From an archaeon (GTDB taxonomy: Archaea; Nanobdellota; Nanobdellia; Woesearchaeales; UBA9642): a DNA stretch of 64,000 nt. The notes beneath the pieces are model-generated. The model was not told the DNA's origin, did not search any database, and was given only the letters and a program-made list of their open reading frames with translations. A program made the position numbers and the translations under genes. The stretch spans positions 1 through 64,000 of the forward strand of contig JAGVGF010000003.1 of NCBI GenBank assembly GCA_020057295.1, read 5' to 3'. The stretch's first letter is position 1, and every line of letters starts with the position of its first letter. Positions 12,108 through 54,980 of the stretch are shown here, piece by piece.

Positions 12108-12208
12108 TTCAATAACCCCCTATATTACGATGAATATTACAGATTTTATTTATAAAGGGAGTCGCCCATTATTTATAAATGCGATTGTTTGTGCTTAGGG
12201 ATAAAACT

Positions 12209-12374
12209 TTCCATTTGAAATAAGGGTTTGTTGTCCCTTCACCAGTGACAACCTTCTTTTCGTATGGAGTTTTTGTTTTGTATCTATTTGGTGTTTTTAG
12301 GCGTTTAAAACCTGTTTCTCTGACTCAGTATACTAAATTCAACATTTAGGGAACCCCTTTAGTGAATATGGAAC
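12209..12374. promoter_or_regulatory. Cluster of ORB-like boxes in the tbp/NUDIX divergent intergenic region
   Basis: TTCCATTTGAAATAAGGGT at 12209-12227 (+), ACTCCATACGAAAAGAAGGT at 12251-12270 (-), GTTCCATATTCACTAAAGGGGTTC at 12351-12374 (-). Confidence 0.55.
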
Positions 12375-12582
12375 ATTACTTTAAAGTGATAGTACACTTA
12401 CACTAGGTATTTGTGTAAAAATAGTTCCAAAACAGTATTTTGTTTATAAACATATTTTATCTTTTTTGATTTTTATTTAATACTATTTGTAATGATTTTC
12501 TTAATTATTTTCGATTTATCTTTTATTTCCATAAACTATATAAAAAGCTGTCTTAACATTTATTCTGTAAAGGTGATTACTT

Positions 12583-15130: not shown

Positions 15131-15250
15131 CACTGACGACTCGAGTATTCTTGTATATTTTCTCGACTAGAAAAAACCACTAAAATAATAAACTTTATAA
15201 ACAAGTTCCTCTAAGATTTACTAGTTTAACTCATTAATTAGTGAGTTGGG

Positions 15251-15496
15251 GTGAATAAAATGGAGACAGTTGCAAAAGTTGGAGTAAAAAAAGAAAAGGG
15301 AATGTTGTACTTTGTAGATAAGCAAGGAGACATTTCAGCAGCAACTATGGCTCGTGGCGGTAAAGCTAAGAAGGGCGCAAAGAAGGTTGCAAAAGTAGGC
15401 GTTAAGAAGGAAAAGGGATACCTATACTTCGTTGACAAGAAAGGAAATGTTGCTAGAGCAAAGATGGCTCGTGGCGGCAGAAAGAGAAAGAAATAA
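15251..15496 (+). CDS. Small, very basic protein made of two tandem ~38-aa repeats
   Basis: VAKVGVKKEKG(M/Y)LYFVDK.G....A.MARGG occurs twice. SD-like GGGGTGA lies upstream of the ATG at 15260, which may be the true start. Confidence 0.85.
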   Translation: MNKMETVAKVGVKKEKGMLYFVDKQGDISAATMARGGKAKKGAKKVAKVGVKKEKGYLYFVDKKGNVARAKMARGGRKRKK

Positions 15497-15526
15497 ATTC
15501 TCTAGTTTTTTTATAGTTATAAACTA

Positions 15527-15546
15527 CAAGAGGAGTAATCCTCTTG
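15527..15546. terminator. Stem-loop between convergent genes
   Basis: CAAGAGGA-GTAA-TCCTCTTG: perfect 8-bp stem with a GNRA loop. Confidence 0.45.
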
Positions 15547-15570
15547 AAGGTTATTTTATATTTCTAATTT

Positions 15571-45771: not shown

Positions 45772-46914
45772 CTATAGATCCATCTCGTTAGTTTTCTCGT
45801 CAACAAATATTTTCTTTTGTTTTGCCAGTCGTTCTCTCTTTCTTTCAGCGATTTTACTGACTTCTTCTTTGGTTATTCTTCCGCTTAAACCAACTTGTGG
45901 TGTTTGTTTTAAGAAATCGTATTTATCATAATCCTTATTAGAATTTACTAGTTCATGCCATTTGTCGAAATCAATCCATGTAAACCATTTATCATTTTTC
46001 TTGAATGTTTTTTTTGCACACATTACTACTCTTGACGGTACATGTTCAGTAACAATCTCATAATCGGATAAATATTTCATTAATTCTTTACTAAATTCTA
46101 CTATTTCCTCATGCCAAGGCATATGATCTATTGTTAGTCTTTCCCTAGATGGTCCGACATGCATGTATGATTTTATTTCGATAAAATCAGGATTGCCTTT
46201 CATTATAAGTTTAGCATATTCTTCGATGTTTGCATCGTTTAATCCTTTAACTATTGTTAATCTTATACATGTGCGATCTTTTTTTTGAGCGCAATATTCT
46301 AAACTTTTATTTAATCTCTCCCAATAGTCGGGAAATAAAGGTACATCTATCTTTTTTAATAAATCTTTAGTTGGTGCATCAACGCTCAAGTATAGTTGTG
46401 TCACACGATTTAAATCTCTTATTTGATCAGGATATTGAGAATTAGTCACAAGAAATGTGCTTATGCCTTCTTTGTTAAACCGTAATAATAACTCGTTCAT
46501 TCTAGGATATGTTATAGGTTCTCCTGTCAAACTTAAAGCCACATGTTTTACTGTTTTAGACATTTCAAACATATGTTTTGCTTCTGGCTGTCCCCCAAAT
46601 CCTGCTAATAATTTATGATGTGCTTCTATACTTCCATCAAATATTAATTCAGGATCATCAACACCCCACTTCCATTCCTTAGAAACGGGTGCTTTATACC
46701 CTCTCCAACAGAATACGCAACGATTAGCACAAGATATTGATGTGGTCATCTGCATACACTGATTGCTCATTATTCCATAGAATTTGAGTTTATAACATCC
46801 GCCCTTGCCCTTAATCATGTTCTTCGTCCAACCACATGTCTTTACGGCACTATGTTCACCAACAATTCTATACTGTTGTCTTATTAGTTCATCCTTAGCA
46901 GTTTGTGTAAGCAT
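45772..46914 (-). CDS. taw1: 4-demethylwyosine synthase (radical SAM)
   Basis: HSAVKTCGW, CYK..FYGI, CANRCVFCWR, HVALSLTGEP, TFLVTN, FIEIKSY. Confidence 0.95.
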   Translation of the reverse strand: MLTQTAKDELIRQQYRIVGEHSAVKTCGWTKNMIKGKGGCYKLKFYGIMSNQCMQMTTSISCANRCVFCWRGYKAPVSKEWKWGVDDPELIFDGSIEAHHKLLAGFGGQPEAKHMFEMSKTVKHVALSLTGEPITYPRMNELLLRFNKEGISTFLVTNSQYPDQIRDLNRVTQLYLSVDAPTKDLLKKIDVPLFPDYWERLNKSLEYCAQKKDRTCIRLTIVKGLNDANIEEYAKLIMKGNPDFIEIKSYMHVGPSRERLTIDHMPWHEEIVEFSKELMKYLSDYEIVTEHVPSRVVMCAKKTFKKNDKWFTWIDFDKWHELVNSNKDYDKYDFLKQTPQVGLSGRITKEEVSKIAERKRERLAKQKKIFVDEKTNEMDL

Positions 46915-46945
46915 GATTAGAAGAAAAATATCTATATTAAAAAGA

Positions 46946-48187
46946 TTATTGCTTATTTGTCTTTGTAGAATCTAATTTGACTTTTGTAAAATCTTCTAGT
47001 GATGTTTTCGGAACCCATCTATAAATTCCTTCACTGCTAGATGCCGGTTCATATCTTAAGTATGTCCATCCAACATCTCTATAAAATTTTTTTAAATATT
47101 TTTCAGTTTGTAATAATCCTGCTAATTTATTTACTGTTTCTATGGTTGGAGAATATTTTATAGTGTCTAATTCCTCCCGCAATCCCTTTAATCTCTTAAA
47201 GAATCTATGATATTCCGTAGTATCAGGGTATGATGGGAGTCTGGTTAGTGTTTCGGAAGTTCTTGAATACGCTCTTAATATGTTTAAAGCCTGTTCAGGC
47301 AGAATCTCTATATTTTCTGTCTCTTGCTTTATCCTTCCTATTGCTTTTTCAAAGGATTCTTCTCCATGTCTGTTTGAAAGTGCCAGATTTTCTTGTGATT
47401 CTAATTGAATAGCGTAAACTACATTTAATATTTCGTACGCTTCATCTATGGTTTTATTTTTTTCGGACAGATTATTTACAAAAAGTGTTCCCAAAACAGA
47501 ACCTGTAATTAAAGTGCCGGCTGTTAACGCTGTTAAGGTTTTTCTGTGTCTTTCTTTCCAATTTTCCCACATTCTCTTTCGTAAACTTTTTGTTTTTACA
47601 CTCTTTTTTGGAGCTAATTTTGCGGTTTCTTTATCAGAAATTGTTTTAAGGATGTCTCTGGCCATTCCTAAGTAGGCTTCTGCTTGAGAGTTTATCCATT
47701 CCGATTCGCTTCCTTCTATTGCTTTTTGTGATCCATTAATAATATAGTGCCCTTGACCATGTCCTTTCATATTTCTTATTTGAACCAAGGGACTGGTTGG
47801 TAAATAATTGTGTGCTCTTCTGTGTCTTTCAAATACTGTTTCACCTGTGTCTAGTTTTGGTGCTTCTCGCGTATTTTTTTCTATATCTTTTAAATTTCCT
47901 TTATATGTTCCGTACAAAACTTGTAAAAAAATGTTTAAATTATCTGCAAGATTTTTAGCATCTAATGCAAATTCGGCGATATATCTGCTTCTTTCAAAAT
48001 CTTCATATGATTTGTTGAAGGCAGTATATTTTTGCATTAACGTTTTAGAATCGCTTTTTATTCCGGATAATGACCTAAGAAAATCTATGTTTGTTAAATA
48101 TGTTTGAGAATTTTTGTTAGCTTTAACTCTTTGTTCTATTTCATCTGTTAGCACTTCTATTTCAGCTAATTTTCTTTCTAAGCTCAT
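46946..48187 (-). CDS. Hypothetical helical protein with a central TM segment
   Basis: 413-aa ORF; basic stretch followed by TLTALTAGTLITGSVLGTLFV. Confidence 0.65.
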   Translation of the reverse strand: MSLERKLAEIEVLTDEIEQRVKANKNSQTYLTNIDFLRSLSGIKSDSKTLMQKYTAFNKSYEDFERSRYIAEFALDAKNLADNLNIFLQVLYGTYKGNLKDIEKNTREAPKLDTGETVFERHRRAHNYLPTSPLVQIRNMKGHGQGHYIINGSQKAIEGSESEWINSQAEAYLGMARDILKTISDKETAKLAPKKSVKTKSLRKRMWENWKERHRKTLTALTAGTLITGSVLGTLFVNNLSEKNKTIDEAYEILNVVYAIQLESQENLALSNRHGEESFEKAIGRIKQETENIEILPEQALNILRAYSRTSETLTRLPSYPDTTEYHRFFKRLKGLREELDTIKYSPTIETVNKLAGLLQTEKYLKKFYRDVGWTYLRYEPASSSEGIYRWVPKTSLEDFTKVKLDSTKTNKQ

Positions 48188-48247
48188 TCTATGGTGTTCT
48201 AGTTATAATTTATAAAGTTGATTATTTTAATCACTGTTTAGTAGCAC

Positions 48248-48281
48248 TATTTTTGTTTTAATCTTATTTTTGTTTTAATCT
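48248..48281 (+). repeat. 17-bp tandem duplication in a T-rich tract
   Basis: TATTTTTGTTTTAATCT occurs twice in tandem. Confidence 0.75.
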
Positions 48282-48523
48282 TGATTATTTTTTCTTTTTT
48301 TACATTTTTTTACGTTCTCGTCGACAATTTTTTTTATTCTCGTCTATTTTTTTTTATCTTTTTTTTAATGTTTCTGTCTTTTTTTGCTTAAAAGTTATGC
48401 TCACTTGAGCACAAAACGGAACATTTAAATATAAGCCCCACCACTAAAATAACTATTGGTATACAAAAGCGTATACCTAGATACATCCAATTAACTGTTT
48501 ACATCCAATAATCCATAACGAAA

Positions 48524-49342
48524 ATGAACGGCTCCGCAGTATTTGATAGGCTTAATATTACTTACATAGTAGGAATATGGCTCCTCGGCGTGCTCATTTT
48601 CGGTTCACTGTATTTCGGCTTAACATTCACAAATCAACCCCTAATGTACAAAAACGGACCATTAACGAGTGATGTTATTGGTTTAGGAAACAGCCTATAT
48701 TTCAGTTTTATAACTGCATTAACAATAGGATACAACGATATAACACCAGTAGGCTTTGGAAAATTAGCTGTGATATTAGAAGCAATATTTAGTGTAGCCT
48801 TACTAGGATTGTTCGTAGCAAAAATAGTTGCAGTAAAACAAGAAGAACTGTCACAAGAAGTAGAAGAGCTAAGTTTCGAAGAATCAACTAATAGCGCAAT
48901 TTCAGAATTATATATTTTCAGAAATGACGTTAAAAATATTCAAGACAAAATAGTCACAACAAAGAAATTAAGTAACGAAGTAAAAACTTTCGAGCAAACA
49001 TTACCAAACATGCGTTTAGCATTAGAAACTTTAGAACACGCAACAGATAAATTATCAAGCGAACAAAAACAAAATAGTTCATTAAGAGTAGAGCTGATCA
49101 TTAACAGCATAAACTTTTCACTCTCAAGAATGATTGAAATGTTAGAGGCATTCAATCACAAAAAAGCGGATTGGAAAAAAGAGTCTACAACAGCAACAAT
49201 CACCGAATGCGCGAGGATTACACAGAAACTATACGACCAGTACAGTTTACTAAGATCCAATGAGCACTCAGGAACGAAAGTAGCAGAGAAGTTGGACGAC
49301 TTGAATAAGACTTTAGCAACACTGAATGAATCACTAAAATAA
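48524..49342 (+). CDS. Two-TM potassium-channel-family protein with a helical C-terminal domain and variant filter TIGYND
   Basis: TM1, pore helix SLYFSFIT, filter LTIGYNDITP, TM2 (EAIFSVALLGLFVAKIV), helical tail. Confidence 0.85.
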   Translation: MNGSAVFDRLNITYIVGIWLLGVLIFGSLYFGLTFTNQPLMYKNGPLTSDVIGLGNSLYFSFITALTIGYNDITPVGFGKLAVILEAIFSVALLGLFVAKIVAVKQEELSQEVEELSFEESTNSAISELYIFRNDVKNIQDKIVTTKKLSNEVKTFEQTLPNMRLALETLEHATDKLSSEQKQNSSLRVELIINSINFSLSRMIEMLEAFNHKKADWKKESTTATITECARITQKLYDQYSLLRSNEHSGTKVAEKLDDLNKTLATLNESLK

Positions 49343-50200
49343 GCGATCGAATGTGCTTTGAACTGATTCAACCCTTCAAAATCCAAGTTTTTGGATAACA
49401 ACAGAAGGATATGAAAATACGGTACTGAAAAATTCATGTTGTATAAAGCAAAACTTTGGTTTTATTCCCGAAACGTTTTGAGTGCGAGTTTGACTCTGCA
49501 TTCAATCAGACTTGTATTTTCAAAAATATGTTTAGAAATCGAAAAAATCATGCTGAAGTCAAGTCACTTCGTTTGTGACTTCACCGTTCACATAGTTCAC
49601 GCTGAAGTATTCACGCAATCCTTGACCTCCTGGAGTTAATCTAGGAGGGCCCATTCCATTCAACAAATGTAGTAACAAGAAAACAAGTAATAACTAATAG
49701 AAACAACAAGTAACAACAAAAACGACGAAGAGCGCCGGGAAAAAGAGATAAAAGACAAAGAACATAAAAACCAAGAGAATATTGGTACCGTAACAGATAG
49801 TAAGAATAAAGAAATTTATTCCTAAACACCTAAATAATGCCTAGCTAAAAGGTGTCGAAAAATTGAGGTATAAACCATAATCAAGTCCGCGCAATAGCAC
49901 ATAAGGACTTGATGAAGTTAGCCAGTGAAAAAATATTCACAGAGGAAAACATCTAACAGTGTTTTTCAAAGACAAAACTAGAATAAAGTTTTCAAAACCA
50001 CAACGGCAAAAAAGAAGATTGGGAACTGAGATTGGCGTACAGTCACACAAACACACAACAACGATTGTAACAATCACAAAACCGTCGAGCCACAGAAACA
50101 ATAGAAAACCATAAAACTAGTCGAATATAAGTAACCAGTGAGACAATAATGGTCGAAAAAATCAACTATCGGCACCGCAAGTTAGTCAAATCATCTCCAA
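49343..50200 (+). ncRNA. Candidate large structured non-coding RNA or very long structured 3' UTR
   Basis: No credible ORF. More than 10 stem-loops, whose wobble pairs are G-U on the + strand, joined by A/C-rich, U-poor linkers. Confidence 0.55.
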
Positions 50201-50208
50201 TTATGTTC

Positions 50209-51069
50209 TTATTCTTTAAATTTAGATAGAATTTCTTCCCTCAATTTGTCAGCTATGGTTTTATTCTTCATCACCATTACTTTGATCTTTGTTTTAAATC
50301 TAAGTATGTCTGCAATTTTTATAAGATCTAATGTTTCTAAGTCTTTTGTACTTTGATAGAATTCTTCTAGTCTTGAGTATATCTCTTCTGGATAGTCATA
50401 TTGAATTATGTATTCTCCGAATACGTTTAAAGCAGTTTTTATTTCAGTCGAATCAGGATTTATCTGATATCTTCCATATTTTCCATAAAATTTCTTTTCC
50501 CACTTATCTAAAACCGTATTTCCGTTGGTTAAATTGTATATTTTTATCTTGTGTAAAAAAACATCTTCCAAAACTGCTTGTTCCATGCCTAGGTGTGCAA
50601 AAACATACCATAAATGTGGTCCATTGAAGAAAAATCTATTATCATCACTCTCTTTCATATTGTATACTAAATCAAAGATTACTTCATTTACAAATTGATC
50701 TGCTAGAATAAGTGTTTCAAATTCGTATGTTGATATTGCTTCCTTTGTTTGTGTAGGTAGACTTTTTCCTCGTTTGTCTCCAGCAAAATAATTTCTCATT
50801 ATTTGATCTGATATTCTTTTTAATTCTAAACTATAATTTTTATCAATGGAGTATGATTTATCTTTTAACGATAGAATTTTTCTTTCAACCATTGCATTAA
50901 GGCTTTTTCTGATTGCTTGAAAACTTAATTCAACATGAAATTCATTTTTTAGTCTATGACATATTTCTCCAATTTTTAACGGATATTCTTTTGCTAGAAC
51001 TAAAAGTATTACATCATGTAGTTGTTTTTTATACTCTCCATATCTAGAATCAATAACTTCTAAAGCCAT
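50209..51069 (-). CDS. Putative winged-helix transcriptional regulator with a C-terminal effector-like domain
   Basis: VILLVLAKEYPL...EI...L......SFQAIRKSLN.MVE..IL wHTH pattern. Confidence 0.7.
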   Translation of the reverse strand: MALEVIDSRYGEYKKQLHDVILLVLAKEYPLKIGEICHRLKNEFHVELSFQAIRKSLNAMVERKILSLKDKSYSIDKNYSLELKRISDQIMRNYFAGDKRGKSLPTQTKEAISTYEFETLILADQFVNEVIFDLVYNMKESDDNRFFFNGPHLWYVFAHLGMEQAVLEDVFLHKIKIYNLTNGNTVLDKWEKKFYGKYGRYQINPDSTEIKTALNVFGEYIIQYDYPEEIYSRLEEFYQSTKDLETLDLIKIADILRFKTKIKVMVMKNKTIADKLREEILSKFKE

Positions 51070-51198
51070 ATTTGTGCTTAGATGCTTAGATATTTAAACT
51101 TTTTGTATCTATTTAACTTTTAGTTTAATGCCTCTTTAACACAACATTTATATAAAAGTATTCACTTCCTAGTAGTATTATTATTTATAGGGGATAAC

Positions 51199-51936
51199 AT
51201 GAAAAAAACACCATTATTACTAATTTTAGCAGCTCTATTGGCTGGTCAAGTAAAAGCTCAAACTTCACCCGAGACATCTAAAACTAAGCTTGAAACAACT
51301 GTTGTTCAGGATTTCTTTGATCTTTATAGAATGAGAGGATTAAATTTTTCCACTGGTCCAGTTTCTCAAACAAATTTGATTATGAATTATGGAAACCTTG
51401 CAGGAATTGTTCTTGTAAACCATAATTTCGATAGAGGGCATATTGACGAATATGATTTTGTAGCAAGGTACACAGACACTCTTAATGTAAATATTGCTGG
51501 AGCTAAACCTATAGTTTTTGGACAATTCGTTTATTTAGATATGGCGCGTCAACAAGCCGGCAAGTCAAAAGAAGCAGCAGTTGTAGCAACTTTGCCAATA
51601 TCATTAAATTCGAAAATGACTTTAACTCCTACGGTTACAGTAGCTAAAGATTTTGATAAAGGAAAAGGAGAATATCTTGGATTAGGCTTTAGTCAAGATA
51701 TTGCTGTAGATTCAGCATCAGGAATTGCTGCCAATATTTCAGGAGTAGTTGGTTACAATAATAAATATTGGAACTCTACATCAACATGGTCGCATGCAGA
51801 TATTTCTGCGAGAGTTTCCGTTCCTCTCGGAAATGGTTGGACAGCAACACCTAATATAACTTACAGCGGTAGTCTTAACAAAGAGTATTTCTCTAATGCA
51901 ACAGTTGCTGGTTTACAAATAAGTAAACAATTTTAA
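51199..51936 (+). CDS. Secreted beta-strand protein resembling bacterial outer-membrane barrels (TorF/Gcw_chp/MipA-like)
   Basis: Sec signal peptide (VKA|Q), Y..RG......P..Q, E.D....Y, alternating amphipathic strands, C-terminal GLQISKQF. Confidence 0.65.
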   Translation: MKKTPLLLILAALLAGQVKAQTSPETSKTKLETTVVQDFFDLYRMRGLNFSTGPVSQTNLIMNYGNLAGIVLVNHNFDRGHIDEYDFVARYTDTLNVNIAGAKPIVFGQFVYLDMARQQAGKSKEAAVVATLPISLNSKMTLTPTVTVAKDFDKGKGEYLGLGFSQDIAVDSASGIAANISGVVGYNNKYWNSTSTWSHADISARVSVPLGNGWTATPNITYSGSLNKEYFSNATVAGLQISKQF

Positions 51937-54447: not shown

Positions 54448-54564
54448 TTTATTTAAATTTGTATCTAGACTGTGATTTTTATGATAAAAAGAATTATCTA
54501 TTATTTATAAGTGTTGCGGTTTGTTTATCGACGATAAAAGATAAGAAAAAAGGTTTTTTTAGAA

Positions 54565-54816
54565 CTATTTTATATCTGCTCTGCATGTGTCTTTTTCTGT
54601 AACCTTACCGCGTTTATTGCTATCAAATATGCTTTGCATTACAAATATTAATGATTCCTCGTTGGCTTCAACATTCAACTCGCACGACTTAAGATTCATA
54701 ATTTCTCCTGCTACCATTCCTTCTTGTTCAGGATGTTCTTCATGTCTGTATCCTTGCTGTTTTGCCATCCATAATTGCACTTTTGTTACTGTATCACCAT
54801 TGTCTATGCGTGCCAT
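54565..54816 (-). CDS. Hypothetical 83-aa protein
   Basis: Strong SD AGGAGG overlapping the stop of the upstream ORF. Confidence 0.6.
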   Translation of the reverse strand: MARIDNGDTVTKVQLWMAKQQGYRHEEHPEQEGMVAGEIMNLKSCELNVEANEESLIFVMQSIFDSNKRGKVTEKDTCRADIK

Positions 54817-54824
54817 TTCGCCTC

Positions 54825-54974
54825 CTAATTAATTATTCTACTCTTAACCTGATTTGAATGTACTTTAAACGAACATCCGCAATATACACATCTCTTAATT
54901 TTATCTGTTATACTGCCTGTTTGTGGTTGATAACTCTGAATTTTTTTACATCTTGGACATGATACTTTTAACAT
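54825..54974 (-). CDS. 49-aa zinc-ribbon protein absent from the ORF track (MLKVSCPRCKKIQSYQPQTGSITDKIKRCVYCGCSFKVHSNQVKSRIIN)
   Basis: Translated by hand. CPRC...CVYCG..F; fills the gap between scpB and the 83-aa ORF. Confidence 0.75.
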   Translation of the reverse strand: MLKVSCPRCKKIQSYQPQTGSITDKIKRCVYCGCSFKVHSNQVKSRIIN

Positions 54975-54980
54975 AATAAA

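Follow-up and report, generated by a model that had tools for sequence, protein, structure and literature searches.

What lies in the long stretch without open reading frames (ORFs) that follows a predicted ion-channel gene in the genome of an uncultured Woesearchaeales archaeon, and is it tied to that gene? The locus belongs to a piece of 64,000 nucleotides (nt) of contig JAGVGF010000003.1 (assembly GCA_020057295.1, positions 1 to 64,000), which was analysed as a whole and is referred to here as the window; the genome carrying the window, G000, comprises 1.2 megabases (Mb) in 6 contigs. The initial annotation of the gap had proposed that it encodes a large structured RNA associated with the channel gene, and our comparative analysis bears this out. 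The RNA is conserved and covarying, is encoded on the plus strand in a single copy, and always stands beside the channel gene: all 13 genomes analysed from the genus have it behind the orthologue. It is almost certainly a real functional RNA. In the reading that we favour, to which we give a probability of about 0.6, a structured RNA of about 850 nt would continue the mRNA of the Ion_trans_2 channel at its 3' end and would act as a protein-binding scaffold in a ribonucleoprotein (RNP). The two features on which the question turns are the following.

48524-49342, plus strand: gene of a two-helix pore channel-like protein of 272 amino acids (aa) with a predicted all-helical cytoplasmic C-terminal domain
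49343-50208: ORF-free gap of 866 nt, flanked by convergent ORFs

With an ORF cut-off of at least 90 aa, the gap is the longest ORF-free stretch of the window, as the initial annotation had said, and the runners-up measure about 533, 475 and 440 nt. Stop codons break all six of its frames and no ORF of at least 90 aa is present. The next longest stretches without such an ORF (54448-54980, 12108-12582 and 15131-15570) gave no Rfam match at gathering thresholds. The plus strand of the gap is A-rich, and the base counts of 49661-49780 are A71, G20, C18 and T11, the last figure being exactly the T content previously estimated. The folding-energy z score of the whole gap against dinucleotide shuffles (n=20 for each strand) was -3.55 on the plus strand and -1.42 on the minus strand. 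Plus-strand windows of 300 nt (40 shuffles) gave z = -3.5 at 49300-49599 and z = -3.6 at 49700-49999, while most other windows across 46300-50399 ranged from -1.4 to +1.9, with two minus-strand outliers near -3. The excess of folding energy is moderate and stronger on the plus strand, and thermodynamics by itself is insufficient; what decides the matter is the comparison between genomes.

When 60 relatives were searched at the DNA level, seven members of the same genus showed collinear multi-block matches (68-88% identity), each lying directly 3' of an orthologue of the 272-aa channel (40-70% aa identity) and each followed by a different gene. Structures were predicted with RNAalifold, and MAFFT was also used for alignment. 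The first 8 sequences gave 58 pairs, 24 of them with compensatory changes, and several long-range helices spanning about 280-330 nt; the alignment of 32 distinct sequences (A3) gave 89 pairs in 16 helices. Over these 89 pairs of regions downstream of the channel gene, standard pairing was found in 89.2% of the cells, versus 33-46% when the partners were slid by 1-3 columns. Changes on both sides occurred in 46 of the 89 pairs (19-31 in the slid controls) and in 192 cells (36-68 in the slid controls), and the values observed on all five pairing measures were reached by none of 500 column shuffles. Because the structure came from the same alignment and the sequences are kin, an out-of-sample test was made, in which the 58 pairs obtained from 8 sequences were found paired in 92.3% of 1286 cells of 23 other sequences, compared with 34-50% when slid, with 104 double changes spread across 25 of the 58 pairs. 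Compensatory pairs across species therefore exceed what the controls give, as is expected of a structured RNA. In the predicted pairs of the 32-sequence alignment, G-U cells numbered 279 and A-C cells 108, and several G-U pairs were near-invariant; it follows from this excess that the folded strand is the plus strand, the same as that of the channel gene and the one which had been named on the basis of the hairpins.

These substitutions also bear on whether the gap could instead be an element acting at the DNA level, such as a replication origin or an array of protein sites, or a decayed gene. An A-rich strand whose AT skew reaches +0.51, like that of plus-strand coding sequence, and the presence of repeated short motifs would suit such an element, whereas duplex DNA is not expected to show, as RNA is, compensatory changes in about half of the pairs and more G-U than A-C. 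Furthermore, the indels are not multiples of three, stops occur in all frames, and no Orc1/Cdc6-like neighbour was found among the five flanking proteins scanned. This explanation is largely refuted and has become very improbable.

The distribution of the RNA was followed with a covariance model of 127 positions (R1) built from its best conserved part. Of the 13 genus genomes, 12, among them G000, had a single R1 match each, and the thirteenth, G002, holds a divergent copy recognised by a profile hidden Markov model (HMM; E 2e-43). At four additional R1 loci and in G002 the channel orthologue, with 33-52% identity, lies directly upstream, so that the RNA stands directly behind the channel orthologue in all 13 genomes. 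A gapped motif of 25 bases retrieved 23 metagenome contigs, all with the full RNA, and every one of the 19 whose sequence extends far enough shows the channel gene upstream, the remaining four ending too early; three of the 23 are identical to analysed genomes and one, M163, is 97.5% identical to the window. A scan of public contigs with a 16-base motif returned at least 119 matches, nearly all of them due to chance, and the four genuine ones are the same as analysed genomes. The gene 3' of the RNA varies among species and was convergent in 7 of the first 8 loci.

A large element with many hairpins, whose length varies through inserted modules, might be suspected of being mobile or self-processing, that is, a remnant of an insertion sequence (IS) or miniature inverted-repeat transposable element (MITE), a group I or II intron, a retron, or the guide RNA of a transposon nuclease. 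Against this, the gap sequence is present once in the 1.2-Mb G000 genome, where motif searches found further copies of the conserved loops at chance level only. The RNA keeps a fixed place behind one gene in all genomes, has no Rfam match to intron, ribozyme or guide RNA families, and has no adjacent reverse transcriptase, IscB or TnpB; a collection of viral contigs gave no match to the 25-base gapped motif. An insertion sequence, MITE or other repeat, which the initial annotation had named as a result that would undo its proposal, was rejected on the same grounds of one copy per genome and constant position, and we consider a mobile origin the least credible of all the explanations weighed here.

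Outside the genus the RNA was not encountered. R1 matched none of the 6 genomes that represent the other four genera in the family and, under stricter filters, none of 149 genomes spread over a further 142 genera in the order. The channel itself is more widespread: about 40 of the 200 genomes sampled across the order carry homologues that are full-length and have the C-terminal domain; at 11 channel loci outside the genus (two in sister genera, nine in other families) the HMM of the RNA found no match, and the next ORF began within 364 nt. Within the sample searched, the RNA is an addition peculiar to one genus of Woesearchaeota-labelled DPANN archaea.

Is the RNA already known under another name? 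A cmscan of 48300-51200 against Rfam 15 (4227 families) at E <= 10 returned five sub-threshold chance rows only, in agreement with the earlier statement that no known family was recognised, and the whole window at Rfam gathering thresholds contains one tRNA-Leu and nothing else. GOLLD, ROOL, raiA, HEARO and other large Rfam RNAs gave no row for the gap at E <= 10. Besides ribosomal RNA (rRNA), RNase P RNA and signal recognition particle (SRP) RNA are the large structured RNAs known to be universal in archaea. Both are encoded elsewhere in G000, the RNase P RNA (RF00373) at C1:216184-216494 with 125.4 bits (cut-off 84) and the SRP RNA (RF01857) at C2:11868-12140 with 135.7 bits (cut-off 96.5), and neither model matched the gap; the likeness to them is one of comparable helix-rich architecture with G-U-containing helices. 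The conserved blocks CAAAGUCC and GAAAUUGGCUUA had suggested CR-I and CR-V of RNase P RNA, and this idea was dropped because covariation (a compensatory change in G000) favours a local hairpin over a P4-like pairing and the genuine RNase P RNA lies elsewhere. OLE RNA (RF01071) was rejected as well: its covariance model gave no match, the neighbour is Ion_trans_2 and not oapA, and the host is archaeal by its RNase P and SRP RNAs, not a member of Bacillota. A riboswitch or other 5' cis-regulator was discarded, the RNA sitting downstream of the channel ORF, with next genes that vary and are mostly convergent. Searches of the full-text literature, subscription journals and supplements apart, listed no account of such an RNA in Woesearchaeota or DPANN archaea, and we know of no large ornate archaeal RNA described beyond rRNA, RNase P and SRP RNA. 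The RNA is very probably a previously undescribed class, a new kind.

How is this RNA built? It measures about 850 nt in G000 (about 49341-50190, plus strand) and roughly 650-1100 nt in relatives, and it consists of a 5' hairpin array whose loops are conserved and whose stems covary, a spacer that is rich in A and for the most part unpaired, and a 3' domain of about 345 nt. The 5' array is made up of the following elements.

49341-49358, plus strand: first hairpin, with an AAGC/GCUU stem in G000 and a GAAU loop, overlapping the channel stop codon at 49340-49342
49366-49416, plus strand: three-tier stem-loop of AUUCA/UGAAA, CCUUC/GAAGG and AUCCAA/UUGGAU (helices 1-3)
49445-49469, plus strand: conserved block AAAGCAAAACUUUGGUUUUAUUCCC, holding the hairpin AAAG/CUUU at 49445-48/49454-57 (helix 4)
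49478-49505, plus strand: hairpin with an AUGAC-type loop, folding at -11.9 kcal/mol
49555-49582, plus strand: module hairpin GAAGUCA-AGUCACUUCGUUUG-UGACUUC, in 0-3 copies depending on the species (A3 columns about 300-400)
49606-49621, plus strand: the most conserved block, AGUAUUCACGCAAUCC, followed by a G+C-rich hairpin
49626-34/49640-48, plus strand: G+C-rich hairpin CCUCCUGGA/UCUAGGAGG (helix 5)

The hairpin at the stop codon was scored by single-sequence folds, as MAFFT set its stems in differing registers and thereby precluded a formal pair count. It has at least 4 base pairs in 24 of 27 sequences, with stems that are unrelated and a loop of the GAAU type, and its mean minimum free energy is -4.2 kcal/mol, versus -1.6 kcal/mol for shuffles. 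Helices 1-3 are paired in 83%, 92% and 94% of the cells, respectively, and the innermost has 3 pairs changed on both sides. Helix 4 is 92% paired, with 2 pairs changed on both sides, and the block that holds it is conserved in A3. By eye, the equivalents of 49478-49505 in the realigned 5' block of relatives carry the stems GUAGA/UCUAC, GUGGAG/CUCUAC and GUAGA/UUUAC. The loop of the module hairpin, AGUCACUnCGUUYG, is conserved across A3; where relatives have the stem AAAGUUC/GGAACUUU, that of G000 shows two altered pairs, each with compensation (by eye). Around helix 5, AGTATYCACGCAATCCT is invariant across the first 8 sequences and the inner TTCACGCAATCC is 90-100% conserved in the 32; the helix is 88% paired and 4 of its pairs are changed on both sides, for example CCCUCUGAC/GUCAGAGGG.

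The spacer that separates the array from the 3' domain carries repeated motifs.

49661-49840, plus strand: A-rich, U-poor spacer of variable length
49686-94, 49699-707 and 49709-17, plus strand: AGURAYGAC repeats
49737-47, plus strand: motif GGGAAAAAGAG

The spacers of the 32 RNAs contain 70 copies of AGURAYGAC, where shuffles give 3.4, and 10 copies lie outside the spacers, in 22,641 nt; a spacer with 2-4 copies is found in 28 of the 32 sequences. A pairing of GGUUUUAUUCCC with GGGAAAAAGAG was considered and is unsupported in divergent members (by eye). Four long-range helices, stacked on one another and designated (a)-(d), close the 3' domain.

49841-50187, plus strand: 3' domain of about 345 nt
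49841-46/50180-85, plus strand: closing helix (d), CUAGCU/AGUUAG
49851-58/50169-76, plus strand: closing helix (c), GGUGUCGA/UCGGCACC
49862-66/50162-66, plus strand: closing helix (b), AUUGA/UCAAC
49873-78/50149-54, plus strand: closing helix (a), AACCAU/AUGGUC
49880-49913, plus strand: inner hairpin
49917-24/50136-44, plus strand: inner helix
49944-52/49959-67, plus strand: hairpin with a CUAACA loop
50018-22/50082-86, 50027-34/50071-78 and 50038-41/50066-69, plus strand: inner helices
50188-50224, plus strand: probable 3' end region, in G000 a U-rich stretch overlapping the end of the convergent ORF

Helices 7-16, which belong to this domain, are paired in 72-96% of the cells, and 33 of their 56 pairs are changed on both sides. 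The closure by (c), (b) and (a) recurs, as judged by eye, in single-sequence cofolds of nearly all 32 sequences. For the segments of (c) and (d), the cognate duplexes have a mean energy of -16.3 kcal/mol and the non-cognate ones -9.1 kcal/mol, and none of 10,000 permutations was as low. The outermost closing helices vary in sequence by lineage with complementarity kept, one subgroup having an unrelated 13-bp helix in place of (c) and (d). An all-against-all column scan for extra long-range or pseudoknot helices was swamped by noise from U runs and purine runs, and nothing was taken from it.

The eight hairpins listed in the initial annotation all fold in G000 as it described; their standing as a conserved fold is divided. 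Those at 49373-408, 49626-48 and 49880-913 are conserved and covarying. Two others, at 49478-505 and 49561-81, recur with changed stems (by eye), the latter fitting the relatives better as 49555-61/49576-82. The remaining three are not conserved: the hairpin at 49804-21, an insertion within the spacer, is present only in G000 and in its 97.5%-identical metagenome twin M163, that at 49358-71 is not retained as such, and the 3' arm of that at 49826-55 belongs instead to a conserved long-range helix.

Where would transcription of this RNA begin and end? Upstream of the channel gene lies one candidate signal.

48420-48435, plus strand: promoter-like box AACATTTAAATATAAG, matching AAC(C/T)TTTWTAAA

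In G000 many tRNA genes, and also the genes of RNase P and SRP RNA, have the AAC(C/T)TTTWTAAA box upstream, at about 25-40 nt from the mature 5' end, and the copy at 48420-48435 is the likely promoter of the whole transcript of channel and RNA. At the other end, a run of at least five U (5-9 U) occurs 28-54 nt past a GACA anchor, right after the closing helix, in 28 of the 32 sequences, and an oligo-U run after a closing helix is expected for an archaeal terminator. In two metatranscriptome studies there are contigs that align, at 85-99% likeness, to 49089-49315, 49364-49495 and 49804-50208, and this or a closely related sequence occurs in RNA libraries. One contig of 537 nt aligns to 49804-50208 and stops there; contigs cannot define ends. 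Depth was unequal between the 5' part and the 3' part of the ORF and the RNA, and, as the runs represent relatives' contigs, no ranking was drawn from it. A single transcript of channel ORF and RNA is the most economical arrangement because of the stop-codon hairpin, the absence of an intervening promoter box and the terminal oligo-U run, and we infer that the RNA is probably co-transcribed with the channel mRNA.

It could instead be an independent non-coding RNA gene with its own non-canonical promoter in the last channel codons, acting in trans, for instance as a protein sponge through AGURAYGAC, its position being merely historical. Such a gene would fit the restriction of the RNA to one genus within a wider channel family, the large excess of repeated single-stranded motifs, and the nucleotide block GAGAAGTTGGAnGACTTGAATAA that is conserved about 40 nt before the channel stop codon. 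However, no AAC(C/T)TTTWTAAA box was found by eye in the last 100 nt of the channel ORF of G000, where a strong promoter box is thus absent, and the conserved block is explained by the conserved peptide EKLxDLNK, since synonymous sites vary there without compensation. A structure under the conserved ORF block GAGAAGUUGGAnGACUUG was rejected for the same reason, its changes being uncompensated. The first hairpin takes in the stop codon, and in none of the 13 genomes and 19 contigs do RNA and channel gene occur separately, although the downstream neighbours change. We consider an independent gene unlikely.

Conversely, the RNA might be a purely cis-acting 3' untranslated region (UTR) with no separate life, which would control the stability, translation termination, localisation or membrane targeting of the channel mRNA. 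The common strand, the lack of both a terminator and a promoter between ORF and RNA, the hairpin at the stop codon and the strict linkage to the ORF are all consistent with this. Nevertheless, about 850 nt with at least 16 conserved helices, conserved loops and a closed domain of 345 nt far exceed the needs of the 3' stabilisers of which we are aware, and channel orthologues in other genera manage without the RNA. A purely cis-acting role appears somewhat less likely still than an independent gene.

The scaffold reading is preferred over a simple stabiliser because covarying stems with conserved loops, a module of variable copy number and repeated 9-mers suit RNAs that form RNPs. According to this proposal, the channel mRNA would continue into the RNA, with the first hairpin overlapping the stop codon and the last helix followed, in most species, by an oligo-U terminator; the conserved loops and repeated single-stranded motifs would be docking sites for proteins on an RNP scaffold; and a complex at or near the channel would be the leading candidate, the RNA being made in cis. 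That the RNA acts as an RNP scaffold is speculative, with the chances about evenly balanced. The channel, or a factor acting on it, comes first among candidate partners because the RNA is synthesised in cis with a membrane protein, as in the analogy of OLE and OapA; that the channel itself is the binding partner is likewise speculative, and we think it doubtful.

What does the channel protein say about this? Pfam Ion_trans_2 (PF07885) covers residues 19-104 of the 272-aa protein (E 1.6e-11, 44.4 bits, cut-off 22.5). The filter reads TIGYND in G000 and its clade (residues about 66-72) and TLGYGN, TIGYGD or TVGYSN in other orthologues, while the canonical selectivity filter of potassium channels is T-x-G-Y-G-D; given this non-canonical filter, the ion selectivity and even the conduction of the predicted channel are uncertain. 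The AlphaFold2 model (mean predicted local distance difference test score, pLDDT, 83) has two membrane helices and a pore helix, with residues 78-271 forming five long helices placed in the cytoplasm. No structural match to the channel model was obtained in the PDB at E <= 0.001. The best Foldseek PDB match of the C-terminal domain (E 3.8e-3) was to fungal lipid-binding helical bundles, with translin rows at template modelling (TM) scores of 0.2-0.3, and its ESM Atlas scores of 0.77-0.81 fall inside the range of shuffled queries. The features of the protein argue neither for nor against RNA binding. All 13 genus genomes also encode another Ion_trans_2 protein, a distant paralogue with 17-23% identity, which in G000 lies at C3:105310-105930.

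Several observations weigh against a channel mRNA that ends in an RNP scaffold. The channel has no need of the RNA elsewhere, since its orthologues outside the genus share the C-terminal domain and have neither the RNA nor a long gap, and this domain is acidic to neutral (isoelectric point 5.2-8.1) with no recognisable RNA-binding fold. The RNA, at 49-66% identity to G000, is slightly less conserved than the channel coding sequence (56-74%), its conservation being confined to blocks; the statement that the RNA is better conserved than the neighbouring coding sequence is accordingly untrue overall. Kinship among the 32 sequences, and the use of these same sequences to predict the structure, inflate the shuffle measures; the slid and out-of-sample controls answer this in part. 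The case for co-transcription depends on one promoter motif being missing, as seen by eye in G000, and the oligo-U run is absent from G000 itself as well as from M163, G009 and G012. The contigs of RNA libraries say nothing on strand, ends, processing or abundance and may contain DNA, and none of the metatranscriptome contigs among the matches listed bridges the stop codon.

To our knowledge, large and intricately folded non-coding RNAs are rare, and each class is either a central machine or an open puzzle, as are OLE, GOLLD and ROOL. Small RNAs derived from 3' UTRs of bacteria, such as CpxQ and SroC, are base-pairing regulators of about 50-150 nt that come from mRNA 3' ends and share the terminator; the present RNA resembles them in being a functional RNA from an mRNA 3' end, and differs in its length of about 850 nt, its closed multi-helix domain and its archaeal host. 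OLE is a highly structured RNA of about 600 nt with long conserved stretches, is encoded beside a membrane-protein gene and forms a membrane-associated RNP, and its biochemical function is described as unknown (PMC3413148, PMC12265935, PMC9723947). The RNA described here is also large, ornate and tied to a membrane-protein gene. In contrast to OLE with OapA, it is archaeal, its neighbour is Ion_trans_2, it lies after the gene and begins at the stop codon, it has no sequence or structure match to OLE, and it has been seen in one genus only. GOLLD and ROOL are reported to form RNA-only homo-oligomers (PMC12286853). These RNAs of unknown function occur in bacteria and phages and share with the present RNA a very large, ornate architecture defined by covariation; the present RNA differs in lacking a match to either family and, with the gapped motif, to viral contigs, and in being a single chromosomal copy with a fixed neighbour.

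A genome of only 1.2 Mb thus spends about 850 nt on this RNA, which was kept while the neighbouring protein diverged to 33-40% identity. Most orphan RNAs offer no concrete and testable hint of a partner, whereas this one does through its constant position on the probable channel transcript, and the 32-sequence alignment, for which the secondary structure is supported, would suffice as the seed of an Rfam family. So far the RNA has been seen in a single uncultured genus, and its biological reach may be narrow. In its boldest form, the proposal would make it the first lineage-specific class of ornate large RNA of Archaea, sharing a transcript with an ion-channel subunit and assembling co-translationally with it into a membrane RNP through the helical cytoplasmic domain or an adaptor protein. 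This would be an archaeal counterpart of OLE and OapA, the RNA serving to modulate a channel or to report on it; we put it forward by analogy and regard it as improbable.

The genes around the channel and its RNA include the following two.

45772-46914, minus strand: TYW1-like radical S-adenosylmethionine (SAM) wyosine gene (PF08608, PF04055)
50209-51069, minus strand: convergent ORF 3' of the gap, 286 aa

Synteny is retained 5' of the channel gene and lost 3' of the RNA, as the TYW1-like gene is found upstream in many loci and the downstream genes vary. ARAGORN identified 29 tRNA genes in G000, a genome rated 100% complete, a count from which intron-containing or split tRNAs may be missing. 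The best Pfam match of the 286-aa protein is DUF5457, which is weak and sub-threshold (19.6 bits, cut-off 25.2). A homologue of this protein with 63-73% identity adjoins the RNA in the metagenome loci L162 and L163, and not in the other genomes of the genus.

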